Source of the DNA: Chrysomallon squamiferum
Taxonomy: Eukaryota > Animalia > Mollusca
Assembly (NCBI GenBank): GCA_012295275.1
Contig: CM022675.1
Location: 3,472,001 to 3,536,000 of the forward strand
DNA: 64,000 nt
Reading direction: 5' to 3'
Position numbers and translations under genes: made by a program. The notes under the pieces were generated by a model that saw only the letters and a list, made by a program, of their open reading frames with translations, was not told where the DNA came from and did no database searches. Below are positions 1,522 through 54,390 of the stretch, one piece after another (position 1 is the stretch's first letter; each line of letters begins with the position of its first letter).

Positions 1522-2618
1522 TTTAATAATAATTTTAATTATAATAACAATAACAATAAAACTAAATGATTTATTAATCCGATTCTATTGTTGTTGGGTT
1601 TTTTTTGGGGGGGGAGTGAGGGGGTGTTTTTGTCTACATAGCTGATTTTTATTTGATAATTAATGTAATTATTTAATTTATAATTATCTGTTTGTAATAA
1701 TAACACACACATATTCACACCTCTTCTCACTGACATTTATTTACATATCTATTTCTGTGTATATGTGTATAGGTACATACACACGTACATCTGTCTTATC
1801 TATCTGCGTATCTGTCTATATAATTGCATAAATATACACATATTTACCTATGGTAACACTAACAGCTGATAAATATTTTGCTGAGTAATTAACTGCGAAT
1901 TACTAATTATTCACAATGATACATAAATCACTATACCTCAAAGTGCAAAAACGATCTACTCTCCCTGTGAGACGTATTTTACTAATTCCAGTTCCAACCA
2001 GTCATCTTGACATGTTTACTTATGTTTATGGTTATTGCAAAATGTACATATATATATATTTGTGTGCGTGTGTGTGCCTCTGTGTGTGTGTGTGTCTGTG
2101 TCTATGAGTGATCAAATGAACGAGTGTAAAACACAAAAATATATTTTTTTAAAGTTTGAGTAATCACATATACAAAATTTCCTCTCCATATATGTTTAAT
2201 CCTTAATCACTTGTATGTCGCCATGCAATTACGTGTTAAAAACGTGTTTAATGTGTCAATTATTACAACATTTCTTCTTCCTATGAAATCAAGAAATCAC
2301 AAAAGAACAGAGAATTATTAACATAATCAACCTCTCACAGAATCAAGGTGGTTATAATCACCACTGGTGTAGTCAACATTACTCAAATCCATGTCAGCGA
2401 TGTTGTAGTCGTCTTCAGTCACAGCAGCGACGTGGTTGTACGTGTCATCATGATAAGATTTCGACTTTGGTGCTGTTGTATCGTAATCACCTTCCATGAT
2501 GTCTCCGATGTGGTTGTATGTTTTGTCATGAGTAGACATGGACTTTTGTTTTGATTCAGTTGTATCATAATCACCTTCAACGTTGCTCTCTGTGTGGTGG
2601 TAGTTGCTATTCTGATTG

Positions 2619-4568
2619 TCAACAATGGGGGTGTGGCCCAGATGTTTTGTTCTTCTTCATCTTTTTGTTTATTTGACTGTAGACATCAGAACTTGATTTA
2701 ACTTCATTGTTTTCATTTAGGACATTATAGTCATCATCGATGTTGTTGTTGTAGCTGTTGTTTATTTGAACATTTCCTGCATTCAGATCAGATGCCAGTT
2801 CGCAGTCACTGGAGTTTGGCTTGGTTGCCATGGTAACATCTGTTAGAGTTTCAAACTCGTAATGTGAATCAGTGTCTGGTTTGATCTCATCGTAATCTGA
2901 CAAGTTTTGTTGATTCACAGATCTGATTTGTCTAGTCATGCTGCTTTCTGGTTTAGTCTGGAAACAAAATTTATATGATCTGAAGTAAAAAATAATTTAA
3001 AAACAAACAAATGAACAAAGCCAAAAAAAATAATAATAATAATAAAAAAATAAAATAAATAGACACACAAGCAAACAAATAAACAAAGAAATATATAATA
3101 AATGAACAAATAAATAAACAAACTGATAGACAAATAAATAAACAAATGAAAAAGTAATAAAAAAATACTAAAGAAATAACAACAAGTATAACAAACAAAC
3201 AAAAATGTATTTCATTGTAGAAATATTCACAGCTGAATTTAAAAAAGAAAAGAAAAAAGCTTGAAAAGTACAAAACAGAAAAGTTTGTATTTACCTTTTC
3301 ATCCAAACTGTCACAACAACAGCTCCAACCACGAGTATAATTAGAGTAATAGAAACACCCACAGCAACACCTACATAAATAAACAAATAAACAAACAAAC
3401 AAACAAATAAATCAATAAATAATATAAACTGTGACATGAATTATAATATAAATAATAATGTAAATAAATATTTATGCACGTTATTTTCTAAATATTGGTG
3501 TATTTTATTAAATTTTCTATTTGTTTAATTTCAAAAGTTATTTATTTGTGTCCTTATTAAATTACACTAACAATGGTTTGATTGCAAATATCAATTAAGA
3601 ATTTAAAGAAATATTAACTAAGTATTTACGTAGTACGGAAGTGAACGGAGTTGTCTCCCTTCCAGACTTTTCTGATGCAGACGACTTGTGACTTGTTTTG
3701 TCTTCTCTTGAAGTTGGAACTAACAAATTTGAATGAGATAAAGTCATTTGTTTTAACAACGTACTAAGAAATATGACGTTGATATTCTTAACAGAACATG
3801 ATCTGAATATAATAATAATTTTAAAAAATGTCTAGTTTATCTGTTAGGTCATTGAAACATTTTAGGTCATCACTCGAATATGCCATTTTATCATCAAAAT
3901 ATTATTACAGAATATAATTGCTTTAGAAATAATCAGGAAAAAATCAACAACAAACAAACCTATCTATCTGTATATCAATAATAATATCTATACATATGTA
4001 TGTATCCATCTATCTGTTTATGTGTATGTCTGTCAGTCCATCAATCAATTTTAATAAATTTCGTGAAATAGAAGTATCCAAAGATTAAAAATACATTTGT
4101 ATTAATACCTGGACTTGAAAGGTTAGATGTTCGAAAATTCGAATCTGTAATATATAAAATATGTAACTACATTCTTAGAAATAATTTTATCAACAGCATT
4201 TAAATAAATGTCAACGTAAGTTTACTATCACACACTGTTAGACCTAACCTTCCTCAGTACACAGCGGCGTAATCCTTTTTTCATGCAGTGCTTCATAAAT
4301 TATTTATCGACGTAAATGTGAATAACCGTCTGTCTGTACGAAAGAGGAACTAACAGAACCGTAGGTTCTCGAAGAAAAGTGTAGCTGAATGCATTTGAAG
4401 ATCATCATATACATCCACTTACTGTTAATTCAGCAGAAAATTATATAATATAATATAATGTTAAGTTTAATATCCAGTAGATGATGATAAAAATTAACAG
4501 GTTTGTTCAGATAAACAAAAGAGGATTAAAGACTCAGATTTTCAAAGAATCAGTAGTTCTAAAAAAAA

Positions 4569-4618
<50 letters not shown>

Positions 4619-7600
4619 CTATTAATAAAAATGGCGGAATTGTGGATACTGCAGTTACTGATTGAAAATGAAATTTTGCCATTTGATAATTTTTCTAACA
4701 ACACGCAGCCATTTTGTGTAATGTTTATATTCAGCGTTTCATCTTCTAAAATTGAAATGATATAATCAGAAGTCCCTTTTATCGACTGATTAATAAATTA
4801 GTTTAAATCAATTTTTGTATTTGTCAGAATAATAATAATAATAATAATAATATAAATAAATAAATAAAAAAATAAATAAATATTGAAATAATTAATTAAT
4901 TAAAACAACAACAAAGAAACCACTCCCATCAAACGAGAAAAATAAAGTAGTAATAATAAGAAGAAGAAGATGAAGAAGAAGAAAAAGGTGGAACTGACAA
5001 ACAAAATCTAATAAAAGTTGTCTTTTCGTTTTAACTTGAACAAAATAACTCACTGAAATGACTGTCAATCCAGCCTATTAGTTTATCACGTTTTAATCCA
5101 ATCCAGTACTCTCTATTTTTACACAAAGTTTGTCTTATTGTTTCAGCGTTGTTTTTGTTTAGTTTTGCTAACACACAGCTTGAATTAGATGAAAACCAGC
5201 TCTTAGTCATACGATGATTGTAACACGATCGATTAGAATACTGCCCTGGACCTGAGTTGAAAAGAAAAAGAAGAAATATGCTGTGTTAAATGAAACAGTG
5301 CTAATCGAATATAAAAAGTATGTGTAAAATTATGTAAGTTTTAGGGGGGTTTATTACTAGTATTATTATATATATATATATATATATAAATTTTTATATA
5401 TTATTAAAAGGAAATTGAAAAAAACAAAATTTACTGAGCGCAGCTATTACGTCTAAAAATATTTTTGGATGAACTTTGTTTTGTCTTCTTGCATTACTAA
5501 GTAGAAGTTGAAACCTTTATTAATATTTCAGTAGACTTATCCGCTGCGTTTAGGAGCTACTGAGAAATATATTTTACCTACCACTGCACTGACTGTTTTC
5601 TAAAGTGAGGGGGGAGGGTTAAACTTTTAATTTTTAATAGTATACGTACTAAGAGGAATAGGATTATAGGTAGGTAAGTTCGATCATTTTTTCAATTCGA
5701 TTTCAATTAATTTGCATATCAGTTGAATATGATGCTTGAATCGAATATTTCTTATTATTGATTATTTCATTCCGAAAGAACGCCAGATTTTTCATTTTTT
5801 ATCACAATTTTCAAGCCTTTGTTTCCAGTTTTTATTCTTAAGTTACAGCTTTTCGCTGTTCCTTAATACTGATACACTTTGTTTTTGTCCAGTTTTAAGT
5901 TAAAAGAAAAATTGGGAATAGAAAACAAATAAAACAACACCCACAGAACCCCCCAAAAAGCACACAAAAACAGACAAACAAAATAAATAACTGAAATTAT
6001 ACCATCCCCTACTCAGCATTAGAAAACAGGTTTAACATGATATTTGACATGACTGACTTATATCTGTACTTATTTGTAAGATAAACACACACACCTGTAT
6101 GTATGTGTATATATATATAAACAGTTATATATAAGCGAGAGTATGAGCGTTCGTGGATGTTTGTGTATAGTTACAATAGGCAATGACCATAAATTGATCC
6201 CAATTGTTACCTATTGTTATATAAAACTAAGCACTCAAGGATAGCAAACAATGAAACAAAATGAGAGACGGAATCATCATATTCTATTGCAGTCTTATGT
6301 CCTGACAAGAGGAGCATTTGCTGTTGACGTATTTCAAAGTCACTATGTCAACCTTCCACCAGATTTTAATTGTAAAATTGTAGATTCAACAAAGGCCTCT
6401 TGTTGTCTCTTAATCATGTCTATGAATTTGAAAATGTTGGGATGACTGCTGCCCAGCGTCTTCAGTTTTCAGTGCCACCCCTCAACGTGATTCGTTGTAC
6501 TGGCACATTTGTTTCGAAATGGTTCCAGACTTTTCTGAGGGAGATTCAATCCAGTGTTTGATGACATACTTCGCAAATCTTAAATCTTGTGGATTCTCTA
6601 GATCGGCTTGGATTCTGAGTAGTTAACTTTAACTTTAATGACACTGACTACAGCGACTGAATAGTTCAGCCATATCACTTAATTCCTTACTAATCCCTAC
6701 AGACTGCGGGCACAAACTGAGGTTAAACCAGTTAAATAATATAAAAAAGTTAAAAACATGTTATATATTGTTTTTAATTAATCAGGTCAGTTTATTAAGA
6801 AGATTCATATACTGTAAGTGAAAATATTCAAAACGTAAACAGTGTTTAAACTATTCAAATATGAACGCTTTGAAACTGGCTTGCAATGTGTAAAATAGTT
6901 TGTATGTCTAAACTGCTTATTAAAATGATTAACTCACAGTTACAAATAAATCCTTTTTTTATCTCACAGTTCTCTTCTGATTTGACAGTTAAACTGCGTA
7001 CATCTTGTTTAACAAATCCACACATACCGTGAATATCCAAATGAACAGTTATATCTGTAAAAGAAATCAAAATATCAAACAAAAAAAAACAACAAAAATA
7101 AACAATTAATTATATACATAATAGTAACAGTGGAATCTCACTAATGATAGAAATAGTTATATTACAATTACTGTAGTAGTAGTAGTAGTAGTAGTAATAA
7201 TAGTAGTAGTAGTAGTAGTAGTGGTAGTGGTAGTAACAGTTTTAGTGGTGATATTAGTAGTATGAAGTGCCTGTAAAAGCTGTAGAATATAATTATAACT
7301 GATATTAACAAAAAACATTGAGGCACAGAGAAAGATGTTACTAATCCTAGGATAATCCTTCTTATAGTTTTATTAAATATTCTTAGAGTTAAATTTAGCA
7401 AGAATTTTTGAATTTTACAAAAATACACTTCTTTCTTTCTTTTTTTTTTCGCGTTTTCAAAGATAAAAAATAAAAAAATAAATTGTTTTTTTTAATATAG
7501 ATTTTATGAAAGTATTTTCGTTAAAGTAAACAAATGAATATAAAAACTAATTATAGCCGTTACGTTCAGATAAATATTGTTTTGTTACCTGTTTGATCGT

Positions 7601-8631
7601 TATTAAAAATCTCAGATTCTGTAGCATCAGTACCTACAACAATAGCAATAAAAATAGCAAATAACATTAACAATAATAATAACAATAAAAAATAATGATA
7701 GTAATAATAACAGGAACAGGAAAAACAAATAATAATAGTAGTAATAATAGTACTAGTAATGATAATTATAATCGTAATAATGACAATAACAATAATGGTA
7801 ATGATGATAATAATAACAGTGCTAATAATTGTAGCTTATTTCGTTACCACCATCATCACTGATGGCTAATTTATAAAGTAAATGTGGATACTTTATATAT
7901 AAATGAGCAAAGTTTACAGATGTAATAAAATGTTACCTATTTTATAAATACTCATTGTGTTTTCAGTCCCGCAGTTTTCTTTGAAGTTTCCCAAACAACC
8001 AGTTTTATTTTCTCTATTAACAAATTCCAATGGAAGCTTAAGCCAGTCTATCAAGTTAAAACAGTAACACTTCTCTCTCTGCAATTCAAACATTTAAAAT
8101 AATAAATAAATGTCAGTGTATAAATGTATGTGTACATCTATGCATGTACATGCAGCTGTGTTTATGCATGCCTTTTTGCATGCATGTGTACGTGTGTGTG
8201 TGCATTTTTCTGTGTCTTTGCTTATGTATTATTTACTTAATCGTGTTACTAACCTGTAATCCCACATATCTTACACTTGAAGTGGTTTGGTGTTGCTGAC
8301 ATTCGTAGTAACATCGACTTGCCTGGTTGTCGTATTTGATTTGATAAAACTGTAAATTTTCTAGTTGTTCATTCACTTCTCCAACATAATGAAATAGTGG
8401 TGTGTTATCCGCTGTAAAACAAAATTAATTTGTTTAATATAATCAGTCATTTTATTATAAAATGAAGTCTGACTCGCACACACATATAGAGAGATACGCA
8501 CTCGAACACACATAGACACACATATTATTAGCTTGACGTTCAATAACTATACTAATAACAAAGAAAACAACAGCATGTACTACTGCAACAATATTAATAA
8601 TAATAATAATAACAATAACAACAGCAACATC

Positions 8632-8662
<31 letters not shown>

Positions 8663-9663
8663 CCGCAGTTTTTATTTAATAAAAGCAATGAAAAAATAAT
8701 TAAAAAAGGAAGAGAGAAAAACAACACAACAGCCGCACAAAAAAAGACAAAACAACAACAAAGAAAAACAAATATATATATTTAATTGTCGTTATTTTTA
8801 TTTTTATCTTAATAAGCTGTGTCAATCAGATATTGCTGTTGTGATCTACTTTACATCACGTGACAAAAGAAATGCTATCTTTAAAGAAGGGAGAAAAAAT
8901 ACTGAAGCTCCTGTTTAGTAAAATCTCTTGTTTAATTTTCTTATTGTGTATATAACGATAGAAAATGCATTGTATTAAACAATATTAACAGATACATATA
9001 TATGGATATTTTTATCATAAATGTACCAATATACTTGCTCATATTAAACAGTAATATAAATTTAATACAGACGAATATTTACAGTCGCCATAACTTTTGA
9101 TCTATGTATTCCTTTACATTTTGTTATCGTAACTGCTCATTTAAACAACTTAATAATTGATATCACCTGTCCACATCCATGAACTGTACTGAACTTTAGC
9201 TCCAATCCAGTAAGATCCAGCTGTGACATCACTCAGTGATGTAATATCTGACGTACTGTACAGTTGTTCTCCATGTTGATGACATGTATAAAACGCTGTA
9301 TCCCATGTGACATTATTTAATATATGCATAGTAGCTGTAATGAAACGGAATATATTTACTTTTAAAACAAACTATAAAATTAAAATCTCTCTCTCTTTGA
9401 CACAAGTGCTTTTCACGGTCAGATATCTAAATATAAATTATATTAATATTAATAATGAATAACTGAAAGACGTTCGTAAATTATTAAAATTATTATACTT
9501 TTTAAAAGATTATTTTCCATCTGAAAATTATAAACATTGGAAAATAAAAACTAACTTCTTTCACGTGTAATTAAAATATTTTACCTGACACAGAAAACAG
9601 CTGACATAAAATCCCGCCGAAAATTGTAAGAAGCAGACGACTTGTACTCCATAGTTCAGCCAT
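2619..9663 (-). CDS. Receptor copy A: SP-CTLD[WSC insert]-CTLD-stalk-TM-Tyr tail, about 531 aa, tail truncated by a frameshift
   Basis: Phase-consistent GT-AG exons: 9663-9585 (MAELWSTSRLLLTIFGGILCQLFSVS), 9334-9167, 8411-8254, 8078-7937, 7633-7589, 7054-6938, 5251-5054, 4745-4620, 4144-4109, 3719-3630, 3370-3295 (TM GVAVGVSITLIILVVGAVVVTVWMKR), 2979-2619. A 4-bp insertion at about 2627-2631 gives GPHPHC-stop. The ancestral tail continues out of frame to TGA at 2327. Confidence 0.8.
6330..6610 (-). mobile_element. Decayed MULE (Mutator-like) transposase fragment in an intron of copy A
   Basis: With frameshifts and a stop, the minus strand reads FAKYVIKHWIE..VWNHF....TTNHVEGWH*KLKTLGSSHPNIFKFIDMIKRQQE. 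This is the typical MULE C-terminal W-N...TNNxxEGWH...HPNI.xF motif. Element boundaries were not resolved. Confidence 0.7.
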
Positions 9664-13170: not shown

Positions 13171-13422
13171 ATGGCTGAACTATGGATTACAAGTCGTCTG
13201 TTTCTCACAATTTTCTGCGTGATTTTTTGTCAGTTGTCTTCTGCGTCAGGTAAGATATTTTAATTACAAGTGAAATAATTTTATTTTTATTTTCCTATTT
13301 TTGTGTTTATAAAAAGCACTGAGACTTTCCGATTATTTTTAATAATTTACGAATGTAAGTATGCTATTAGCAATTTTTAAATTTTATTTATATTTAGAGT
13401 TCTGACCCTCAGCGGCACTTCT

Positions 13423-13473
<51 letters not shown>

Positions 13474-13551
13474 ATTTTAAAGTTTGTTTTATAAGTAAAT
13501 ATATAATTCATGAAATTTATTTATATATGAAATAAATAAAATTAGATGACA

Positions 13552-13619
<68 letters not shown>

Positions 13620-16268
13620 CACATACATACAGCATTATTTGAATTCAAAACTTTTTTTTCTAACTGAATAGTATTAATGAAAAAAAGAAATTGTAATATT
13701 TGTTCTGTAAGTAAATATGTTCTGTTTTATTACAGCTACTCTGCGCGTATTAAATGACGTCACATGGGATACAGCGTTTTATACATGTCATCAACATGGA
13801 GAACAACTGTACAGTACGTCAGATATTACGTCACTGAGCGATGTCACAGCAGGCAGTTACTGGATTGGAGCTAAAGTTCAGTACAGTTCATGGATGTGGA
13901 CAGGTGAAGTAAACAGTTATTAGTTTACTTTACTGAGCAGGTACGATCATAAAACATAAAGGAATACTACCTCATATAAAGAGATATATAGCATCTAGTC
14001 ATGTGATGTAAAATACGTCACAACAGGAATATCTATTTAACACAGACAGCTATTTAATATAATTAATCTTTTTTAACACAAATATATATATATTTCTTTT
14101 TGTAGTTGCTGTTGCTCGTGGGTGGATTTATTATTATAATTTTAGTAATTGCTATTGTTTGTTATTAATACGTTTATTGAAAGTCGAACTAGCTTAGAAA
14201 TAAAGAAATGAAATTTTTGTAATTATATAATATGTGTTTATGTGTGTGTGTGCAAGTGCGTATCTGTGTACGTGTGTCTGTGCGTTTATTTGCGTGTGTG
14301 TGAGACTAGATTTTATGTACAAAATAATGCTTACATTGTAAAATCGATTATACTAAAGAAATCAATTTTGGTTTACAGTGGATAACACACCACTGTTTGA
14401 TTATCTCGAAGAACTGAACAAATCACAGTCTGTACAGTTTTATCACATCAAATATGACAACCAGGCAAGCCGATGTTACTACAAATGTCAACAAAACAAA
14501 ACTACTAGAAGTGTAATGTATGTGGGATTGCAGGTTAGTAACATAGATTAAATAAATAGTTACATACGCAAAGACATAAAGACATGTACATAAATACATA
14601 CATACATACATACATACAAACGTACATACATACATTCATACAAACATATATATCTATATACACATATAGATATATATATATACATGCATAGGTGTAAACA
14701 TACATTTATACATATGGAACCATATGTACATACATACTTATATACTGATATACGTACGTATGCACATATACATATAAACTTTAAAAATATTTCTTAGTGG
14801 TAAAAACGTTTTGGAAAAAAAGATATTTATATCAGGCTGTTGTGAGGATTGTTTCTCACTGATATCTTAATAATGTGTTACCTGTTTGGAAAGGGAAACA
14901 GAATCAGTTGATGTGAAAGTGGTAAGAAATTATTTTTAACACGTGTTATATTTATTATTTTAAATGTTTGTATTACAGAGAGAGAAATGTTATTGTTTTA
15001 ACTCGAGAAGCTGGAATCAGATCCCAAATAAGTCTGTTCAAAATGAAAAGAAAATTGGTTGTCTAGGAAACTTCAAAGAAAACTGTGGTACTGAAAATTC
15101 AATAAGTATTTATAAAACAGGTAAAATCTTCTTTACGTCTGTAGGCTTGTTTGTGTTCATCTATTTCTCTGATATTATCGGCAATATTGAGTATTTATTT
15201 ATTTAGAAGACATTTTTTGTTTGCTTGATGACACGTTAAGATTTGATGGCAATCGTGTTGCCATAGTAATTAATATGGAGTTCCAGATTTTTTAATGCCT
15301 TTTGTTGAGTATTTAATTAAACAGAATTTGATACATTTTTTATTCACAATATTATTTCTAAAGTAGAAGTGTAAAAAGAAATACCACTGATACACGAATT
15401 TTTATTTTATTTTATATTTGATAACTACCAAAAACGAATATCCGCAAAATATTAAAATAAAACAATAATATTTTTTTATGATGATTTGTCCAAATACGTA
15501 ATTATTTATTTATTTATTTATTTCCATTTATTTATTATCTTTATTTTATTTTGTTTTTGTTCATTTATTTTATTTTATTTGTTTTATTTATTTACAGATT
15601 TGACAATGAGGTATGTTAAGTGGTTACTTGATGTTGATGGTGTTTGTGGCTACATTGAACAAAGTGTAAATACTTTTGTGAAAACAGATAAAAACTGTAA
15701 CACACAGAGAGGATTTGTCTGTGACTGTGAGTGAATTTTTTTCTTTCTTTCTTTTTTTCCCTTCGGTTTGTGGAATTTTCTTTACTTTTTTCTAGAAGAT
15801 TTCTCGCTGTGTGTGTGTGTGGTGAGTGTTTGTAATAGTTAATAAAATGTTTTATTACAAAACAAAATTATATAATATAGATATATAATGTTGCTTTTTA
15901 TTTCAGATAAGTTACCTTGATATTATTTGTTTCCTCGTTTATTACAGGTGCTGAAGATTACAACAATACTTCATGTTATCATCATGACAAGACTCACAGC
16001 TGGTTTTCATCTAACTCAACTTGCTCATTAACAAACTTTAATAAAAACAATGCTGAACTAATTAGAAGAAAAATTCAGGGTGGAGTACAGTACTGGATTG
16101 GACTAAAACGTTACAGACAAATAGTTTGGTTTGACAGTTTTTACAGTGAGTTATTGTAAAACTGATTAATTTTTGTTTATGTTCTCCTTTTCCAGTCTTT
16201 TTTTTTAATTCATTCTAATTTAATTCTTCGTTCAGATGATTTAGGTTTTTATTTCAATAATAATAATA

Positions 16269-16307
<39 letters not shown>

Positions 16308-17476
16308 ACTAACACTAATAATAATACTAATGTGACTATTTATTTACTTACCTACTTACATATTTACTTATTCAATTATTCTATGGAATACTAGGTGGTA
16401 CTCTTTTCGTTTGTTTAATTAAGTATACTTTGAATTTCAGATCAAACGCCAAATGTAAACATTACACAAAATGGCTGTGTATTGCTAGAACATTTCTCAA
16501 AAGGCAACTTTTCATTTTCAGTTGGTAATTGTAGAGATGTTCATTCCGCTATTTGTATTAGGAGTAAGTATTATTTATTTATTTTTATTTATTTATTTAT
16601 GTATTTATTTATTTATGTATTTATTTATTTATTTATACACAGGTATTTGTCAAGTATTGTATTCATTAGTAAAATGAAATTTTCAGTGAACAGCTTAAAG
16701 AATTTACAGTAGACGACTTTGGACACAGCTGTTAGTGCTAACCATCGAGTATTTGAAATCCTCTTTTAGTTTATCTGAACGCTACGATTAATTTTTTATC
16801 ATCACCAAGAACATATTAATCTTTGTGAATTAGATTTTAATAATTTTCTAAAGAACTAAAAATGAACTGATAATAAGGTATGTTCAAAAGTATTCTGCTA
16901 CAGTTTTCATTGAGAACCTATTGATATGTTATTTGCTCATTCTCACAGACAGAAGTTTATACACACTTATACTAAATAATTAATGAAGCACTGGATGAAA
17001 CAAGCAATAACCCATACAAATAATGGCAATCGCTAAAAACAGTATGGTCAGTGTATAATAGTAAATTTATGTTGACAGTTATTTAAATATTGTCGATAAA
17101 ATTATTTCAAAAAATATATAGTTACATATTTTTTGTTTTACAGATTCCAATTTTCGAACATCTAACCTTCCAGGCAGTGAAACATATAAATCAAGTCCAG
17201 GTATTAATAACAATGTATTTTTAATCTTTGGATAATTCTCTATTAAGAAATGTATAAAAACAGATGAATGGACGGATCAATGGACAGACAGAGAGAGAGA
17301 GATACATTCGTATATACAGATACAGATTATAGATCTATAGATAGATTGTTTGCTGCTGTTTTGTTGTTGTTATTTTTGTTGGTGTTTTGTTTTTGGGTTT
17401 TTTTTTTGTTGTTGTTATTTGGAGGTTTTTTGTTCTTTTGTTTTTCTTTTAATCTTACTACCAATAGAAACCTTTA

Positions 17477-17538
<62 letters not shown>

Positions 17539-19533
17539 TTACACTTCTCGTAAAGCACTTATGAACTTTAAGAAAATATACGTCTTATTTCTTAAAACGT
17601 TGTTAAAATATTTGACTTTATCTCATTCACATTTGTTAGTTCCAAGTTCCTCGGAAATAACAACTTCGAAAGGAGATAAAACAAGTCACAAATCTTCTTC
17701 GTCAGAAAAGTCTGCAAAGGAGACAACTCCCTTCACTTCCGTACCAGGTACACTAATTATTTCCCTTCGTAAATAGTTAGTTAATAATTTCTTTAAATTC
17801 ATAATTGAAAATTACGAATAAACCATTGTTAGTGTAATTTCGCATATAAATAATTTTTGAAAACTAACAAAAAATTAAATGAACATTTCAAAAATAACAT
17901 ATATATATATATATTTGGTGGTAACAGGATTGTATCCAAATTTTAAAATATTGGATATTGATTATTAATATATTGAAATTAATAATGTTTGTCACATTTC
18001 ATAAAACGTTGTTAAAACATACGATTTTTTCACATTCAAATTTGTTAGTTGCAAGTTCCTCTGAAATAACAAAATCAGGAGAAGACAAAACAAATCAGAC
18101 GCCAACTGCGTCAGAAATGTCTGGAAGGCAGACAACTCCTTTCACTTCCGTACCAGGTAAAATACTTATTTCCCTTAGTTAATTTCTTTAAATTCATATT
18201 TGATATTTACAATTTAACCATTGTTAGTGTAATTTCACAAATAAATAACTTTTGAAACCTAACCAACAGAAAATTAAATGCAATACAGCAATATTTTGTG
18301 CTAACAGAATTCTAACAAAACAATAAATATTAGATATTATTTATTATTGTATTGAAATTAATAATAGCAAAACTGTAGAAGTTGTTTTATTACTATAGTT
18401 GTTGTATTTGTAATAGTAGTAGATGTTGTTATAGTACTACTAGTAAAAGAAATTCTATTAACTTTCTTCTTTTTATTATGATATTAATAGTACTGTCGCT
18501 ATTGTTGTTGTTGTTATTATCATTATTATTTTTATCACTGTGATCATTATCATTGTTTTCATCATTTTTACCATCATCATCATTATAATTATCATTGCTA
18601 CTACTACCATTATTATTTGTTTTCTTGTTATTGTTATTGTCAATGTTATTTTTAATGTTGTTGTTAATGTTATTGGCATTATTGTTTGTTGTTGTTAATA
18701 TTGTTGTTGTCATTGTATTGTTCTTGTTATGATTGTTGTTGTTGTTGTTGCAGGTGCTGCAGTTACAAAAGCTCAGATTCTTAATAAAAATGAAAAAGAT
18801 CAAACAGGTAAGATAAAAACAATGTTTACCTGAATCTAACATGTGTACTTTAGTTATTAATATTTATTTACTTTCATAAAAACTGCATATGCGACGAAGT
18901 ACAATATATTTGATTTATCTTTGTAAAAAAGAAAAAAAAATGAAATAAAATATAAAATTTAAATATCTATCCTGTAAAATGTAACTCTAATACTAACATT
19001 AAACAAAACTAAATTAATATAATTATACTGTTAATAGTAAAATAGTCAGTAGATTATGTGTCAACAAATCAATTTATTTGTTTTTCATTTACAAATGTTT
19101 ATTTATTTATTTATTTATTTATTCATTTGTTTGTTTGTTTAATGTAATCATACACAGACATTTCTGAAGTATTTTAATCACTACTAAAACCAAATTTTCA
19201 ATGAATACCATAAATAATATAAAATATGATCTGGATCCACTTGTTAGCGCTAACCACTGAGTCTATGAAAATCTGAACCTATAACCCACTTTTGTTTATC
19301 TGAACAAACCGATTCACTTTTTATCATCACCTACTCGATAACTTTATTTTATTATTGTATATAATTTTCTATAGAAATAAAAATCAACGAAACTGTTATT
19401 TATGTAGGTGTTGCTGTGGGTGTTTCTGTTACTCTAATTCTACTCGTAGTTGGAGCTGTTGTTATGACAGTTTGGATGAAAAGGTAAACATAAAAACAGT
19501 TCTATGTTGTACTTTTCATGCTTATTAAAATTC

Positions 19534-19564
<31 letters not shown>

Positions 19565-20475
19565 ACTTCTTTTTTTATTCAAATCTGACTGTTTGTAAAT
19601 GAAATACATTTCGTTTGTTATATTTATTTATTTATTTGTTTCGTTTGTTATGTTTGTTTATCTTTTCATTTGTTCATTTGTTTTTTGTTGTTTATATATT
19701 TATTTGTTTACTTATTTATTATATGTTTGTTTATTATTTTTTGTTTCTTAATTTTTTGTTGTTTATTTATTTATTGTTTGGTTTATTTGTCCTATTATTT
19801 TTTCTTTTCTTGTTTTTCTTTCTCTTCAGATCACATACATTTTGTTTCAAGACTAAACGAGAAAGCAGCAATACTCGACAAATCAGATCTGTGAATCATC
19901 AAAACTTGTCAGATTACGATGAGATCAAACCAGGAACTGATTCAAATTATGAGTTTGAAACTCTAACAAACGTTACCATGGCAACCAAGCCAAAGTCCAG
20001 TGACTACGAACTGGCGACTGATGTGAATGCAGCAAATGTTCAAACAACCAACAACTACAACAACATCATTGATGATGACTACAACGTCCTAGATGAAAGC
20101 AATCCAGTTAAATCAAGTTCTGATGTCTACAGTCAGGTAAACAAGATGAAGAAGAACAAAGCATCTGGGCCACACATCATTGACAATCAGAATAGCAACG
20201 ACAACCACACTGACATCACCGTTGAAGGTGATTATGATACAGCTGACTCAAAACCAAAGTCCATGTCTACTCATGACAAAACATACAACCACATCGGAGA
20301 CGTCATGGAAGGTGATTACGATACAACAGCTCCAAAGACGACATCTTCTCATGATGAGACGTACAACCACATCGCTGCTGTGACTGAAGACGACTACAAC
20401 ATCGCTGACATGGATTTCAGAAAAGCTGACTACACCAGTGATGATTACAGCCACCTTGATTCTGTGAGAGGTTGA
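13171..20475 (+). CDS. Receptor copy B (intact): signal peptide, CTLD split by a WSC domain, second CTLD, Ser/Thr stalk, TM, 13-Tyr cytoplasmic tail; about 680 aa
   Basis: 13 canonical GT-AG exons with consistent phase, totalling 2043 nt: 13171-13249, 13736-13903, 14379-14533, 14979-15120, 15598-15726, 15948-16145, 16441-16563, 17144-17200, 17640-17747, 18049-18156, 18754-18807, 19408-19483 (TM GVAVGVSVTLILLVVGAVVMTVWMKR), 19830-20475. CTLD motifs W..A...C...G..L and YWIG; WSC motifs C...C...YVGLQ..CYC...C.GN..ENCG...SIY.T. Confidence 0.9.
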
Positions 20476-21569: not shown

Positions 21570-24500
21570 AAGAAAATCTATTTCATAAATTGTTTATAGA
21601 TAAGAACTTAAGACAAATAAATTAACTTACTAGATAAGAATGGGAGAAGACAAATACACTTACTTTTTCTTTGTATTTTTTCTTTTCTTTTTTCTTTTCT
21701 CTATATTTTTAAATAATGTCTGCATTAAATTTGTTCTCTTTACTAACAAAGGAAGAGCTATGATTATAAACATCTCCCTAGAAAATGTTTATTATTTAAA
21801 AATAAAAATAAAACACGAAAACACAAAAATTAATAAAGTCATATTATTATCCTGCATATAGACAGACCTGGTGTATATAACTGGTATAAAATCATTCTTG
21901 TTTATATCAAATTTTCCCTCACATTCTCATATAAACATTAGTCAAGTTAACAAAATGATTTGAAAATATAAAACGTAGACAATATATCTCTGCTTTGTAC
22001 ATAAAGTCTCTAATGAATGTATAATTTATGTACATTTTATAATAATAATTACAATATTATTAAACAGAAAGTTAATTAACAAAATTAATGAGTGCTTAGA
22101 ACCAAAGTGGTCTAAAAATTAGAAAATGATTATCTGATGATAGATTTTTGATAAGATGCATAACTGTGCAGAGGTTCTAACTTTTGACAATCATTTTTAA
22201 CTCAATCCAGTTTTGTGAGTATTATTTTACTTTTGTACACTTTGATAACTTCATTATCAATCATCTAAAAATGTAATTTCTATGTTTAAGACAAAACTGA
22301 TTCTATGCCCTTCTTTTTATATTGTTATATTAATAAAATATTTACGTATTTTTATATAACGAATAAAGTATTGATCAACAAATCCTGGAGTTTTTTCTTG
22401 TTTTTTTTTTATCATTTCTGAGTTTTGTTTTGTTGTATGCTTTTCTAATAACAATTCTTCAATTATTAATCTTGTTAAAAAATTTTGCCATGATATATTT
22501 GATATTAAACTTATTAAAATAACAAAAGTTTATCTCATACTAAACTCTCTGAAATTGCATAGCAAATTTTATTATATTTTATGATTGAAGAAATATATGG
22601 ATATCTGAAGACATTAAAAATATTTGGGTTATTTAAAACCTTTTAAAACCATTTTAAAATTAAAAATTAAAAATAATAAAAATAATAATAATAAAAAAAT
22701 AATAATAATATTATTTTTTTTTATTTGTTTTTTTTCTTTATTTATTTATTTATTTATATTGTTATAAATTTAAATTTTTGAATATAAAAAATAAAACTGA
22801 TAAAGGCATGTTGTATGGTGTTTAATTTGAAATATTTTTCTCAATGATTATTTTTCAAAATTATTTCACTGATCTGATGCACAAAAGTGATTTTTTTTTG
22901 TTCCTAGTTAACACAATAAAATATTCAAAAAAATAAAATTGATTAAAAAAAAAAATCATAAAAAAAAGAAGTAAATAAACAGCAGTAAAACAGAATAAAT
23001 TAAAAATTCATTCATAGAATAACACTTAAAAAAATGTCTCATAAAATATTATTGAAAAATAAAATACAAATTTTTCTGACATCGAGGTAAACACTTTTAT
23101 TTTTACATTTTTTTTATTATTAGATTTTTTTTTTTTATAATCAAGTGTAAATTTTATATTTCATTTGCTTGTGAAAATTTGTATAATTTGAAAACTGTTT
23201 CTGTTTACTTCCTCTATCTTTTCCAAAATTTGACATTATAAAACAATCATTTGTATATTTGTTCTATTGTTTATAATGCATTAATAACTTAACAATAGTC
23301 AATTCAAAAAGTTATTTCGGTCTCGACAAAAGTTTTGAGTTCATCGCATTATTATAATTCATAAACACTGAAATAACTTGACAAATACAAACTGTGTGGT
23401 ATGTGATGCTCTGTTTAAATTATTCTATCACAAACCTTGAACATCACAAAGTCAACATGAATAAAACTTTTAACATGTGTTAGCCTTTTTACATTCGAAC
23501 ACACCACACAACAAATTTATTTCAGTAATATTTGTGATTGTTTATATTTGTACGTCACAAACTTGAAATTAACTTCATAATATCACAGTGTTTACACAAG
23601 TATATCACAGTTTACTGATAAAACAACATGAATGGTATTATCTATGACACTTTATATATATTTTACTGTTTTTTATACAAATTTAATTGTTTGTTATGAG
23701 ACTAAAATCAAGTTAAAAAATATTTTTAAAATTCAAATATCAGTTTGAGCTCAAAGAAATATTATTATACAAATAAGTTTTTCAGAAATAAAATAAAATA
23801 AATAGGTAACCTGTCTTTTTAAGTCAAGCATGTCTGTACCCACATACACACACGCACATAATCACAACTGAATTTCAAAAGCAGATATAACAATCTATGG
23901 AAATTCTACCTGTAAATAAAAAAAGTCTAACATCTGATATTTTCATTCTGTCATACAATTTAAATTTTGTTTCTTTTTGTTTTTCTTCACTTTTGAAACA
24001 CTTCAGTTTTCTTATCTTCACATATATTTATATACAGGTTTAGTAATTGCCCGTGTATTGTTTGTAAGATATATATAGTTTTTAATTATATAAATCTCAG
24101 AATTTATTTATTTTAATTTTTATTTATTTATTTACTTATCTATTTATTTCAAGGAAATTAAAATCAGCACTTGTAACTTTACAACGTTAAAGGCCCAATC
24201 ACACCATTAAAATGCTATACTGATTGAGTCTCCAGATTACGTTATCTTTTAAGTTACTATGAAGACTGAGCCTCCGCTTGAAACTTATTTTGTGCTCCAG
24301 CATTTTTAATTAAATTTAATAAAAAATAAATAAAAAAAAGTGTCCTGATAATGATTTAATTCCTGTGGGGTTCTTAATTTTTGTTAAACTTAAATACATA
24401 TTAAGAATTAAGACACTTATTATTAGTTCTCTCTACTGTGTAACACGTTACATTATTTCACAAAATAACAGTGACATTTTTAAAACCACTAAAATATATT

Positions 24501-25590
24501 TGTAAGAAATAAAACTCTAAACAAAACAGTAACAGAGATCACACACACATTAAAAATACATTTTATATAGTTGTAGTTTGGGTGTTTCTCAGTAAATTTA
24601 TTTAAAATGTATTTTTAATGTAAGTCTGATCTCTGTTACTGTTTAGTTTACAGTTGCATTTCATAGAAATATATTTTAGTGGTTTTAAAAAAGTCACTGT
24701 TGTTTTGTTGTGTTTTAACTTGATTGTAGTTTGTGTTAATAGACAACGAAATTATTCAAAGTGATTGTTTCTTTTTTCCCCTTTTTTCTTCATACACACG
24801 CACGCACGCACGCACACACATTTTGCTATTGAATAAAAAGTCTAAATTACTTTTAAATTGTTTAAAATTTTTACTTTATTGATTTTCACCTCTGTCTTTG
24901 ATAATAAATAAATTACAACAGTAAAATAAAACTGCTACGAAATGTTTGAGTTCCGCCATTTTCCCATTTTCTGATTATAATACTGTAGCATAAACTGTGG
25001 ATTGTGACCATGTTTCTATTTAAAACAAGTAAACGACTGCAGTGCACTGCTTTATGTTAAATTGATTAATCTGTGTTTTAGCAAATTGCTAAATAAGCTA
25101 TTTAAAAAATGTAAAAATTAAAATATTTGTGCAGATTATGCAGTACATGTGTAAAAGTTTTATTTTAACTAGTACATCGAGTATTTAACTCAGTGAAACT
25201 TTATTTGTTTTAGTCTTCAGCGTTTGAGCGCATTACACAGTAAACATGTTCTGTTTCACGTGGCACGTTCATGTACTCATTTTGACAACTTTGGGCCATG
25301 TTGTGTCACCTGCAATAAGAAAACCAAAACTGTCTGTCGTGTAGAAAACAAAATATGAAATTTTAATCAAAATTATTTTAAAAAATAAATTATAATAACA
25401 TGAATTAAGCATAATATTTCCTGGACATATGAAATAATCATAACGAACGAAAATATTATTACATAAATCTAAAAGGATATCTAAAACCATGTTATCAACC
25501 AAGAAAGGTAACTCTATTTACCTTTTAATCTAAACAGCGATGACTGCGCATGTTACTAAACAACCGTAAGGACTGTTACAGAAACACGAA
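21570..25590 (+). repeat. 3' flank of B, segmentally duplicated at about 36850-39480 (3' flank of C)
   Basis: Shared anchors such as gataagaacttaagacaa, aatcattcttgtttatatcaaatt, ccgccattttcccattttctgattataatactg and ccgtaaggactgttacagaaacacgaa. About 1.5 kb (22640-24130) has no counterpart in the second copy. Confidence 0.85.
24461..24707. repeat. Hairpin/inverted repeat with about 105-bp arms and a 38-bp loop (MITE-like)
   Basis: caaaataacagtgacatttttaaaaccactaaaatatattt...ttaaaaatacatttta pairs with taaaatgtatttttaa...aaatatattttagtggttttaaaaaagtcactgttgttttg. Confidence 0.85.
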
Positions 25591-27450: not shown

Positions 27451-27695
27451 TTACAGTTACAAATTAAAAAAAAAAAGAAATACAGTTTATGAAATTCCAT
27501 TGCACAATATGCATTCTTATTGTTTGAATTTAAGATAAAGTTTAATTTTTTGACTAATAATACACACATCAGTAAAATGAGTAATGGAAAACTAAATCTA
27601 TGTATTTTCCTTTCAGGATGAAGATAAAAAAAATTTATGACTTTCAAAATCAAAGATATGGATTTTTTGGTTACATTTTGAAAAACTGCTGCAAT

Positions 27696-28613
<918 letters not shown>

Positions 28614-29588: not shown

Positions 29589-36729
<7,141 letters not shown>

Positions 36730-38652
36730 AACATCGCTGACATGGATTTGAGAAATGCTGACTACACCAGTGATGATTACAGCCATCTTGATTCCATGAG
36801 GGGCTGATTATGTTCCCACAACATTCTTAACAATAAAATCTAATTTGTAAATTTTTTGTAGATAAGAACTTAAGACAATTACATTAACTAACTAGATAAT
36901 GATGTGAAAGGTCAAATACAATTTATTATTATTATATTCTTTCTATTTTTTTTTTTTTTTTTATTTTATTTTTTTTTTTTTTATTTTTTTTTATATTTTT
37001 TTTTTTTTTTTTTTTTTATAATATACACTTTAAATTTGTTCTCTTTATTAACAAAGGTAGAAGTCTGATTATAAACATCTCCCAAGAAAATTTTTATTAT
37101 TTAAAAATGAAAATAAAACACGACTACACAAAAACAAAAATTAAATAAATCTTATTATTATCCTGCATGTAGATAGAGCTGGTATGTAACTCGTACAAAA
37201 TCATTCTTGTTTATATCAAATTTGCTCGCATTCTCATATAAACATGAGCCAAGTTAATACAATCATTTGAAAATATAAAACGTAGCCAGTATATCTCTGA
37301 TTGATTTGTAACTAATTTATGTTGTGAATTTATACCCTTTTATAACACAATAACAATATTGTTAAACAGAAAGTTAATACAATTAACGAACCACTAAGAA
37401 TCAGAGCAGTCTAATACCAAATATTTTTATTTTTAAATAAGATCAATAGAAAATGATTATCTAATGACAGTCTGACAAAATACATCACTGTCAGAACTGT
37501 GTAATGTTTCTAACTTTTGACAATCACTTTTAACTCAATCCATTAACTGTTCTGTGAATTTTATTTTAATTTGATACACTTTGATAATTTCAGTATCAAA
37601 CATCTGAAAACAAATAAAAAGTTGTGTGTTTTAGACCAAACTGATTCTAAGTCTTTCTTTTTATATTGTTGCATTAATTAAATGATTATATATTTTATAT
37701 AACAAATAAAATATTATTTCAAATTTTTTTTTTTATCCTTTTATCATTTCTGAGTTTGGTTTTGTTGTATTCTTTTTTAATAACAGTCCTTTGAATATTA
37801 ATGTTCTAAAATTGATATACCATGATATATTTTACATTAAATTTACTAAAATAACACACAAAATTATTTCATATTAAACTTGCTGAAATTCCGTAGCATA
37901 ATCTATTATATATTATGACTGCAGAAATATATGGAATATTTGCAAATATTAAAAATATTTGGTTACAGAATTATTGCAGAAATAAATAGAACTATTATCA
38001 GGAATCACTAATTTATCTATTTATTTATTATTATTATTATTATTATTTCATTGTATTTTTATTTGTATTTCACTTAATTTTTTGTATTATTTCTTATTTT
38101 TTAAGGAAACCACAATCAGTACCTTTGTACTTTTACAGAAATTCAGGCTTGTAAAATTCACGCTAAGCGTGGAATTAAAACAATGACTATACTATACAAA
38201 CTGAGCCTCCAACCGTACGTTATCGTTTAGGTTACTACAAAGACTGAGCCTATACGATTTTTAATTAAAATAAATAAGAAATATTCAGATACTATAAAGA
38301 CTGAGCCTGCGTTAAACAATGTGGATATTCTAATAGTGACCTAAATTTTTTAAATTTATTATTTATTTATTTATTTATTTATTTTTTTATTACCTTAAAT
38401 GCAAACAGACATAAAGAATTACAGACACTAATTATTAGTTTTCTTTTCTGTGTAACATATCTTTTCTAAAAATAACAGTGACTTTTTTAAAACCACTAAA
38501 ATATATTTGTATGAATTGAAACTGTAAACTAAAAAGAGATCAGACTTATATTAAAAATACATTTTATAAAAATTTACTGAGAAACACCCAAACTACAACT
38601 ATGTTACTAGACAACGAAATTGTTCAAAGTGATTGTTTTTTTTTTTTTTTTT

Positions 38653-40477: not shown

Positions 40478-41997
40478 GCACTTATCTATTTGTCTGACCT
40501 TCTGCCTGTCTGTCTGTCTGTCTAACGATCTAAAGATTACAAATACAGTGTTACTAATAGTTGAGCTTGTTCTGTAATTTTCACGACTTGCAAAATTCGA
40601 TTATGTGATATACAGAATGTTTTATTAGCTTTTCTATATTATTATTACAACAACATTTAAAATCAGGCAACATAAATTCTCTTCCATTCTTTGATCATTT
40701 TGCCAACAATTGCCATTACTTTTATCACTATGAGTTCTAGACTACTCTGTGGGCAAGTTAGGTTGTTTTTTGTTTCATTCACTGCTTCGTGACTTGGTTA
40801 TCAAAGACCTTGGAAATTTCTTTCGTATCTATGAGAAGAAGCAAACCCCCCCAAAAAAAACAACAACAAAACAACAAGACTTTAATTCTAGACTAATACG
40901 TTTGAAGACTGCTTATATATATATATAAATAATTCAAGAAATCGCTATAATAATAATAACAATAATAAAAACTAAACAAACAAACAAACAAATAAATAAA
41001 TAATACTTACTACTAATACAAATGGCGGAGTGGAGTTCACTACAGTCACTAATGGAAAACGAAGTTTTGCCGTTTGAAAATTTCTCCAGCAAAACACAGC
41101 CATTTCCTGTGCTGCTTATATTCAGTGTTTCATCTGAAATTCAAAATATCTTTTTGTTTAATTAGTCAAATGAAAAGAATATTATTTAAATTCCCTAGAA
41201 TAAGTAAGTAAATACACACATTTGTGATGATGATAATGATTATGATGATGATGATGATGATAATAAAAATAATAATAATAGTAAGAAGAAGAAGAAGAAG
41301 AATCGAAACCTTAATCATCTGAACGAAGAATCAAAATAGAATAAATGAAAACAAAGAAAGACTGGAAAAGGAAAAGATAACTAAAAATTAGAAAACGTTT
41401 TTGATTTAAGAGTTAATCAGTTTTACAATAACTCACTGTGAAAACCGTCAAACCAAACTATTTGTCTGTCACGTTTTAGTCCGATCCAGTACTGTACTCC
41501 ATCAGACATATTTGGTCTAATTAATTTAGTTTTAAATATATTTATCTTGGTTAACGAGCAGTTAGAGTTTGCTGAAAACCAGCTGTGAGTCATATTGTGA
41601 TGGTGACACGAGGGGCTGCTGTAATCTTCACCACCTGTAATAAACAAACAACCAATGACGACAAAAACAAATCAAAATTACAAATAAACAAAATTAATAA
41701 TAATAAAATTAATAAACTGGAAGACACAGTATTCCAAAAGCACCATTCATCAGAATATTTTAGAATTTTGAAGTCTAAGATATACGTGTCATTATACAAT
41801 ATTCTTTTTCTTCAAAGACTGTTCCCATTAAAGTCAGCCTAGAATGATGAAGATGATGATTGTGGTGATGATAACGATGATTACGATGTAATAATATCAA
41901 AGAGGAATATTAAAGAACATTGAAGACGGAAAAAAAGCATGTTAAATCGTTATAAAAACATTCAAGACGCAAGAAAAAAAGATCATTATAAATCTTT

Positions 41998-42048
<51 letters not shown>

Positions 42049-42583
42049 GTTTAGTCAACGACAGAAATTAACCTTTCTTCTTTAGTGATTAAAAAAAGAA
42101 ATAAAGTATTTTTCGTCTTCTTTTGAAACGTTTGGTGCCCCACAATCGTAGGCCTCTTTCTTATGCTAAAAATAAATTTTCATTTTCAGACCTGTTGCCT
42201 ATTTTTATGGTTAAATGTTTATGATATTCTGGATTCAGTATAAGGACATTTTCAATAGCTTACAGCAGTCACAAAGACTCTGTCCTAATTGTATAACAGA
42301 AATATTCACTCACAGTCACAAATGAATCCTTTGTGAGAGTTACAATTCTCCTCTGACTTCACGTAAATGTGTACATCTTCTTCAATGTAGCCACAAACAC
42401 CATCAATGTCCAGAGGCCATTTAACATATTTAATAATCAGATCTGTAAATAAAAAAATAAAATAGAATAAATAAATAAATAAATAAATAAAGTGAAATTA
42501 AATAAAATAATAATTTTTTGGACAAAATGATCGTAAATACATTTTAGTTTTCTTTGTTTCTTTGTTTTATTGATTTTGTTTTG

Positions 42584-42664
<81 letters not shown>

Positions 42665-42893
42665 TTTACTTTGTTTTATTTTATTTTATTCTGTTTATTT
42701 TTTTGTTTTTTTTCCTAATTATCAAGTATAACGCTGAACTAACAAACTTGTTTAGTGGTAAATTTCGTTTACATTTCTACGATCGAAATTATATAAAGAA
42801 TAAAAATGCAACAAATTTTATAGTTTATTTACATATACATCAATAGTTCCTGTTCAAACCTTAATGTGGCACTTATTATTTTACTTTAAAAAA

Positions 42894-42932
<39 letters not shown>

Positions 42933-42997
42933 TAATAATAATAAAATGTTAAACGTAAAATTTAAAAAGACTTAAATAAAAATTAAAAAAAAAAAAA

Positions 42998-43040
<43 letters not shown>

Positions 43041-43373
43041 AAATATCAAGATGAATCTAAAAAGTCTAGAGACGCAAACAAAATTTTACTTGTGTCATAA
43101 AGACTCATTGTGTCTTCAGTCCCACAGTTTTCATTGGAGTTTCCCTGACAACGCGTTTTATTTTGTCTTTGAAGACTTCTACGTGGAACGTTATAGCAGC
43201 CAATTTCTGGTAAACAATAACAGTTCTCTCCCTTTAAAAGAGACGTTAAAAAAATATTAAATATCTCACGTGTGAAAATAGAAACCACATTTATATCAAG
43301 TTTAAATGAAACTATTTCCTATATTTCAATCAGGATATATATATATGTCACAAACGAATCTATATATTTATAT

Positions 43374-43415
<42 letters not shown>

Positions 43416-44484
43416 TAATAATAATATATATGTGTGTGAGGATGTGTGTGAGGGGTAGGGGGTGAGTGTGTATTTAATTTATGTTACTAACCTGCAAACC
43501 AACACATAGTACATCATGTGCATAAGTTTTGTTTTTTCTACATTCAAAATAACATCGGCTTGCCTGGTTGTCATATTTGATTTGATAAAACTCTACAGAT
43601 TGTGGATTTCTTAAATTCTCCAACGTAACGAAACAGTGGTGTGTTATCCGCTGTAAACCAAACTTGAGTTATTTAATATAATCCATTTTGAAAAGTTAAA
43701 CTAAAAGAAATAGTAACATTTATAGATGTATGTGCATTTCTTTTCTTCAGTTAGCTCTATTTATTGCTAAATTCTGTCTATCAAAAAGAATGTTATAAAT
43801 CAAAATTAATATAATGTTAACACGACTGAAAATTCACAGTAGTCATAATTTTGGATCTGAGTATTCCTTTAGATTTTGTGATTGTAACTAAATAAGTTAT
43901 CTAAAAATAAATATTTACTTCACCTGTCCACATCCATGAACTGTAAACTGAACTTTAGCTCCAATCCAGTAAGATCCAGCTAGGACATCGCTCAGTGACG
44001 TAATATCTGACGTATTGTACAGTTGTTCTGGTCTAATAAAATGTATTTCACTTGTTCTTATAGTTTTTGTGTAACAATACCTGTAAAAAAACAATAAATT
44101 AACGTTATCAAACAACCATTAATAAATATATTGATATATTTAATAAATATGCAGTTTAAAGGAAACATTAATACATATTTAATATAACTGGATAATAAAA
44201 ACAATATATATAACTTTTATAAAACAACCATTAATTTCTCACAGTAGCTGTAATAAAAAAAACAATATATTTACTTAAAAACAAACATTAATGAACTGTA
44301 CTGAACTTTGTAATAAAACTCAGTAAGATCCTGCTGTGACGTCACTCATTAACGTAATATCTGACGTATTGTACAAAACTTATATATACATATGATGACA
44401 TGTATTAAAACGCTGTATTCCATCTGACGTTACTAATGGCATTTAGTTAGCTATAAAAAAAATGTTTTTTAAATTAATACAATC

Positions 44485-44519
<35 letters not shown>

Positions 44520-44766
44520 TTAGTAAATATATATCTATCTATTTATCTAATATATATATATCTGTACATCTGTATGTATATATGTGTATAATATTTGTTT
44601 CATAAAGAAAATAATCTGACGACTTTATGTTTGCTGATATAATTGCGTATAAATTAGAAAATAGAATATAAAAGGTAAATATTTTACCAGACGCAGAGAA
44701 CAGCTGATAGAAAACTGCGCAAACGTTTATAAGAAGCAGACGACTTGTACCCCATCGATCAGCCAT
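39576..44766 (-). pseudogene. Receptor copy D, disrupted and lacking TM and tail exons
   Basis: Exon 1 44766-44688 (MADRWGTSRLLLINVCAVFYQLFSAS). Exon 2 is broken into decayed pieces (about 44450-44290, and 44030-43924 with a 2-bp insertion). Exon 3 43650-43492 is 159 nt (frameshift). Exons 43231-43090, 42442-42314, 41634-41437, 41133-41011 and stalk exon 39713-39576 are open. No TM exon occurs before the junction with C's 3' flank at about 39490. Confidence 0.8.
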
Positions 44767-46494: not shown

Positions 46495-46636
46495 AGAGAG
46501 AAATGTTATTGTTTTGCATGGATAAACCGGAATCAGATTTTACGTAGACGTTTTCAAACAGAAATTAAAACTGGTTGTCTAGGAAACTCCAATGAAAACT
46601 GGGGAACTGAAAACACAATTAGTATTTATAACACAA
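46495..46636 (+). pseudogene. Receptor copy G: orphan WSC exon (exon 4) with flanking intron remnants
   Basis: tttacAG|REKCYCFAWINRNQILRRRFQTEIKTGCLGNSNENWGTENTISIYNT|GTaaa, 142 nt like exon 4 of the paralogues. It has a C>W change, and exons 1-3 are absent. Confidence 0.8.

Positions 46637-48209: not shown

Positions 48210-54390
<6,181 letters not shown>

Follow-up and report, generated by a model that had tools for sequence, protein, structure and literature searches.

A predicted surface receptor of the mollusc Chrysomallon squamiferum in which a WSC-like module probably lies within a split C-type lectin domain

A 64,000-nucleotide stretch of the Chrysomallon squamiferum genome (assembly GCA_012295275.1, contig CM022675.1, positions 3,472,001 to 3,536,000 of the forward strand; hereafter the window, whose own coordinates are used throughout) contains a gene whose exons encode half of a C-type lectin domain (CTLD), then a WSC-like module, and then a candidate for the missing CTLD half, raising the questions of whether one domain is nested within the other and, if so, which of them offers the binding face. 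The gene (13171–20475, +) has 13 exons with AG/GT ends throughout and a 680-amino acid open reading frame (ORF) whose sole stop is the terminal one; the exon 2–5 peptides quoted in a preliminary description of this DNA are all present where it placed them, and these exons join in frame. The product is a predicted single-pass type I surface receptor, composed of a signal peptide, a CTLD/WSC region (residues 28–225), a second cysteine-rich domain (residues 226–331), a stalk, a transmembrane helix, and a cytoplasmic tail. We consider it highly probable that the WSC-like module sits inside a single CTLD.

Sequence comparisons support the assignment of exons 2 and 5 as the two halves of one CTLD, as the preliminary description had proposed. 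Exon 2 (13736–13903, +) encodes the N-half, with W37, C44, WIG at residues 69–71 and WxW at 79–81, and ends in phase 1; it aligns to positions 3–57 of the 107 in Pfam Lectin_C (E 0.074, 14.2 bits), and profile against profile it matches CTLD with 72% probability. Exon 5 (15598–15726, +) encodes the C-half, with Y187, W190, a shortened loop without EPN, C198, C215, and C223, plus C225. When exons 2 and 5 are joined, the profile-against-profile probability is 94.5% over 94 columns with a score of 45.2, compared with 37.5 for the best of 150 controls in which the exon 5 columns were shuffled. The CTLD reference consisted of prokaryotic lectin domains (123 loci, 122 translated), and a subset chosen by pattern contains the 11 of 122 with all four cysteines, every one of them a Pfam Lectin_C domain; against the profile of these 11 the joined halves span positions 11–118 of 119 at 16.2 bits, a score reached by 4 of 1,000 controls with a shuffled C-half. 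In the profile alignment C44, C198, C215, and C223 fall on the canonical CTLD cysteines, and these four, together with WIG69, stand in CTLD order and are invariant in six of six sequences. The 16 ectodomain cysteines can be apportioned, using the pairing of known folds, as two pairs for the split CTLD, three for the WSC-like module, and three for the second domain. Nesting is favoured because the invariant C44 would otherwise be without a partner. The possibility that exon 5 is an internally repeated exon 2 was dismissed at a probability of 0.1%.

Exon 3 (14379–14533, +) completes the WxWxD motif and then, by WSC profile, encodes the N-part of the WSC-like module (F89, Y91, E94 in place of the first WSC cysteine, C115, C119); exon 4 (14979–15120, +), placed by its profile matches, encodes the C-part (C138, C140, C162, C170, Y179, without the sixth WSC cysteine) and ends in phase 1. 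The insert scores 27.3 bits against the WSC profile, compared with 13.9 for the best of 1,000 shuffles, and matches WSC with 95.8% probability profile against profile. When a profile built from seven copies of exon 4 was searched against 1.84 billion representatives, it gave 15 matches, 11 of which are Pfam WSC proteins, the remainder being two unrelated repeats and two proteins of the peltospirid gastropod Gigantopelta aegis; Wsc1 is the top solved-structure match of the G. aegis protein P0006. Six of the eight WSC cysteines are kept, the first and sixth being replaced by E94 and K/N158 in six of six sequences, and in the available text of PMC9024836 these two form a single disulfide pair in Wsc1. 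The predicted model of the module has a PAN/apple-type WSC fold with three disulfide pairs. Exons 3–4 are thus supported, by profile comparison and model, as a WSC-like module below Pfam detection: the preliminary description suggested checking them against Pfam WSC, and although homology to WSC stands by profile, a Pfam scan gave no WSC match for exon 3 or 4, nor for P0006, P0008, or P0022 at E≤0.1. Its expectation that domain scans would return only fragments was borne out by the absence of WSC and by Lectin_C, which P0006 matches at 19.7 bits, below the 22.6 cut-off; P0022 has no relevant match. Residue 158 (exon 4, near 15048) is Lys here, but five of six sequences have Asn at this position, as part of an N-x-T glycosylation sequon. 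Matches of single exons to XRCC4, an antibody, and an antiholin were dismissed as chance.

The preliminary description also held that the WSC module takes the place of the sugar-binding loop, and this has to be corrected. The CTLD long loop bears Ca2+ site 2, with EPN/QPD-like and WND-like motifs (available text of PMC5877582). The alignment places the insert after WxWxD and before YxxW, which puts it upstream of the EPN loop; an equivalent of that loop persists in exon 5, shortened by about five residues and motif-less. EPN, QPD, and WND are found nowhere in the 680-residue protein, as had been noted, and the aligned Ca2+ site 2 positions, including that of WND, are not conserved among the copies of the gene. 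Molluscan lectins tolerate many motif variants (PMC5877582, in the part available), so Ca2+-dependent sugar binding here is unlikely, not impossible. By alignment, then, the insert appears to lie in the long loop beside a dead sugar site, not to replace it.

Several results weigh against nesting. Taken by itself, exon 5 matches CTLD weakly, with 1 of 150 shuffles scoring above it, and its four solved-structure matches are headed by the C-terminal part of CLEC9A at a weak E of 0.36. With the unfiltered 122-sequence profile the C-half is unaligned, and the joined halves score 18.3 bits, exceeded by 7 of 1,000 controls. The WSC fold match proposed as a check is seen in the model but is partly circular, 11 of its 33 alignment rows being WSC domains. 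As to the co-folding proposed as another check, the modelled CTLD halves follow the CTLD order of helices and strands, but at low confidence (predicted local distance difference test, pLDDT, 35–60), and the disulfides were not observed. The single-sequence fold of P0006 has a pLDDT of 35; a complex prediction of the exon 2 and exon 5 peptides scored 0.09 without controls and counts neither way; and the structure matches listed for the model (50 VIA rows, Foldseek), whose CTLD part is of low confidence, include no C-type lectin, an absence that likewise weighs on neither side.

The low-confidence model and the weak match of exon 5 alone would suit an arrangement without nesting, in which exon 2 is a truncated lectin remnant with the WSC module in tandem behind it, and exon 5 serves as a small, separate cysteine-rich linker or as the partner of the second lectin-like domain. 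Such an arrangement would, however, leave the invariant C44 unpaired. The stretch of the profile missing from exon 2 is precisely the one that exon 5 fills, and in the right order; exons 6–7 have a cysteine set of their own, and adding exon 6 to exon 5 brings no gain in score over exon 5 by itself (19.3). We regard it as improbable, and retain the nested fold.

Splice joints were read from contigs of public runs, two of which, X6 and X7, are labelled as DNA by guess yet contain spliced joints. Among the 15 of 23 joints listed, introns 1, 2, 6, 8, 9, 10, 11, and 12 are spliced, as is intron 3: the exon 1–2 joint is in runs X8 and X9, exon 2–3 in X8, exon 3–4 in X9, and the intron 6 joint (16145–16441) in X6 and X7. 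For intron 4, run X6 has exon 4 continuing into a short overhang of 9 bases from the start of exon 5; the intron 5 joint has an overhang of paralogue type, the intron 7 joint has no clear trace in the contigs, and no joint skipping from exon 2 to exon 5 is among those listed. Many contigs differ by 5–10% and come from paralogues, so that part of this support applies to the family and not to this copy. If exons of different genes had been joined on paper, or if the cluster were decaying and made no functional protein, the short overhang at the exon 4–5 joint would be readily understood, as would the state of the window's five further copies (there is also one lone exon 4), all of which have a frameshift or stop as assembled. 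This copy, in contrast, is open across 13 exons with joints in RNA contigs, independent G. aegis gene models have the same order, and the ratio of nonsynonymous to synonymous differences (pN/pS) is below 1 in every module, and we give an artefact or a dying cluster very little credence.

Phase-1 introns flank exons 3–4, the combined length of which is a multiple of three in five of six copies, and CTLD genes are known to have an intron site downstream of WIGL, its phase unstated in the available part of PMC514892. The simplest origin for the nested arrangement would be exon shuffling of a two-exon, phase 1-1 cassette into the intron after WIG.

The close database relatives of the gene are all in G. 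aegis, a deep-sea vent snail; one of them, P0006 (LOC121392170, XP_041379450.1), has 134 of 263 columns identical (51%) and its parts in the same order. Three G. aegis loci (LOC121392170, LOC121385101, and LOC121385106, XP_041371576.1) share the CTLD-N, WSC-like, CTLD-C order and the same cysteines, but these models, unnamed as to function or domain, are partial or end in transposase-like sequence, and a transmembrane helix and tail were not seen in them. Residues 231–272 of P0022 and the N-terminus of P0008 are transposase-like (weakly Pfam DDE_3 for P0022), and both are probably chimeric annotations. A search with P0006 among 697 candidates (157–503 residues searched) found three proteins, all from G. 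aegis and one of them a third family member, whereas no longer protein emerged as a homologue when exon 4 and the tail exon were used in word-index searches, which is weak evidence. In the Atlas, exon 4 has no match and P0006 only scores below 0.9; a 60-member mollusc cluster without a Pfam family (score 0.77, 169 of 256 features in common) is a lead only. One of 71 stretches passed a metagenome scan, at 38% identity, and the protein and Atlas searches recovered no members more distant than G. aegis.

Both folds have known counterparts. The module shares the CxxxC, CxC, and CxG...CG pattern of WSC domains (PF01822; yeast Wsc1, PDB 7pz2; human Kremen1, PDB 5fws; the Serendipita Wsc3 beta-glucan lectin), but lacks the Cys1–Cys6 disulfide, has CGT where WSC has CGG, and lies inside another domain instead of forming a free bead. 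The lectin part resembles CTLDs (PF00059) without Ca2+ site 2, such as CLEC9A and Ly49, in W-x6-C, WIG, WxWxD, YxxW, the four core cysteines, and the absence of EPN/QPD/WND; it differs in being split by a domain of about 95 residues and in belonging to a type I protein with a long Tyr-rich tail. Natural killer-type receptors have a type II dimer topology. Polycystin-1 bears WSC and CTLD in tandem, and domain insertion as such is well known. Bivalve CTL-domain proteins are described with WSC as an additional domain and with a proposed immune role, and there both domains share one extracellular chain as here; insertion is not described in the available text of PMC10140915, and the term WSC is absent from its supplement. 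The available parts of PMC4581086, PMC11871041, and PMC2659687 add nothing on the question, and we came across no account of a CTLD whose long loop holds an inserted domain in the open literature, a coverage that takes in little of subscription journals and preprint supplements. The exon architecture is real, built from two known folds, and apparently undescribed.

Outside the nested region, exon 1 (13171–13249, +) provides the start codon and a predicted signal peptide (residues 1–26, hydropathy peak at residues 1–14). Exons 6 (15948–16145, +; C234, C250, WIGL at 274) and 7 (16441–16563, +; C303, C321, C329) encode the N- and C-halves of a second, degenerate CTLD-like domain, which fits CTLD in its cysteine pattern and WIGL; its score against the CTLD profile, 14.75, is exceeded by 3 of 150 shuffles and is not significant, and a homologue of the exon 6 region weakly matches Ly49L1 (E 0.083). 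Exons 8–11 (17144–17200, 17640–17747, 18049–18156, and 18754–18807, +) form a mucin-like stalk with 37% Ser plus Thr over 109 residues, exons 9 and 10 being tandem duplicates of each other. Exon 12 (19408–19483, +) encodes the single transmembrane helix (about residues 442–464, hydropathy 2.77) followed by basic residues, and exon 13 (19830–20475, +) the 214-residue tail and the stop codon. The tail has 13 Tyr, seven within YxxL/I/V motifs, a number that none of 10,000 shuffles reaches, and from its sequence the protein is probably a signalling receptor.

How such a protein might work can be sketched from these parts. Disulfides C44–C223 and C198–C215 would close the CTLD halves, and the WSC-like module, which would retain three of its four disulfides, could sit in the loop because its first and last strands neighbour each other. 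The lectin fold would now be a Ca2+-independent pedestal for a WSC tip, where a ligand, perhaps a protein or else a glycan of microbial or matrix origin, would bind, most likely on the WSC surface; binding would cluster the receptor, and kinases and SH2 proteins would then act on the tail. A nested CTLD/WSC pedestal receptor that signals through its Tyr-rich tail is, on balance, the reading we favour, and the chance that the WSC part is the main binding face falls a little short of even. The ligand of the WSC domain is beta-glucan in a fungal lectin and the protein Dkk1 in Kremen1 (available text of PMC9024836), and the positions of Wsc1 aromatic cluster 1 are kept as F89, Y91, and Y179 in six of six sequences. 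Against a WSC binding face, aromatic cluster 2 of Wsc1 has only one of its three residues conserved here, and pooled pN/pS, for copies with open exons, is 0.59 in the WSC part, 0.66 in exon 5, 0.60 in the second domain, and 0.25 in exon 2; a test for positive selection on the WSC part found none, no module exceeds 1, and these sequences give no sign of WSC as a diversified recognition tip.

Exon 2 is the most conserved part of the protein, with 93–98% identity among the copies, where the other exons differ far more, and 64% to G. aegis. This would suit a nested fold whose binding face is instead the exon 2 half, or a composite CTLD-WSC groove, for a protein partner of the sort bound by NK-type CTLD receptors and Kremen1, in adhesion or development and not glycan sensing. 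The lack of a Ca2+/sugar motif is in keeping with such a role, as are the best, weak structure matches of exons 5 and 6, CLEC9A and Ly49L1, and, in the available text of PMC9024836, the contact of Kremen1 WSC with Dkk1 and a Wsc1 surface without an evident glycan pocket. Synonymous divergence (pS) is, however, also low in exon 2 (0.12, compared with 0.25–0.37 in other modules), and recent gene conversion, possibly restricted to exon 2, may explain part of the conservation; tandem expansion with broken copies would fit immune-type receptors, and the cluster 1 aromatics are kept. A protein partner bound in this way is a minority possibility, and we continue to prefer the pedestal with a WSC tip.

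The other copies lie on both sides of the gene, and some of their breaks may be assembly errors. Paralogue A (2327–9663, −) has an open nested module, a divergent exon 5, and a last-exon frameshift as assembled; a 54-base copy of stalk exon 11 with splice ends lies in its intron 4 (7589–7642, −), between the WSC exons and the divergent exon 5 (44% identity to that of the main gene), which suggests a recombinant copy in which the extra exon would extend the return linker in frame. Paralogue C (29589–36808, +) has open exons 2–7, but in the assembly a stop cuts its tail exon short near the end, and in paralogue D (41010–44766, −) exon 2 is broken and partly duplicated and exon 3 frameshifted, with stalk, transmembrane, and tail exons not found within the window. 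The lone exon 4 copy (46495–46635, +), on the strand opposite to paralogue D, its neighbour, has one WSC cysteine changed to Trp. Paralogue E (52258–54355, +) has an exon 2 frameshift and an exon 5 stop, and downstream of it (56372–56966, +) lie a related exon for the transmembrane segment and a short, different tail exon bearing Tyr, perhaps an alternative 3′ end for the receptor family. Paralogue F (58036–63672, −) has open exons 2–5, and its exon 6 and tail are frameshifted in the assembly; its exon 1 is outside the window. The 5′ part of a gene for SelO, a protein adenylyltransferase, is present three times (27618–28584, +; 49887–50280, +; 1–222, −), each time adjoining a receptor gene copy; the first of these matches Pfam SelO at E 7e-11, and the duplicated unit appears to include the SelO fragment and a common upstream region. 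At 24460–24708 there is an inverted repeat, about 250 bases long and imperfect at 83% identity, with a partial copy near 38409–38602.

That the receptor recognizes microbes or symbionts is a guess drawn from family behaviour and the host group (PMC7895826, in the part available). More broadly, it is conceivable, if unlikely, that these genes represent an overlooked, Pfam-invisible family of mollusc receptors in which a trimmed WSC cassette took over recognition from a dead Ca2+ site, with signalling through the Tyr tail and tandem expansion in symbiotic vent snails for microbial glycans. A receptor family below the Pfam cut-off for both domains is missed in immune and symbiosis inventories made by domain scan, and the inventory of a peltospirid vent snail counts CLECs and mentions WSC zero times in its main text (PMC7895826). 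Loss of exons 3–4 would preserve the reading frame, which makes the gene a good example on which to test exon shuffling into a domain, and a whole domain within the CTLD long loop would widen the known tolerance of that loop.
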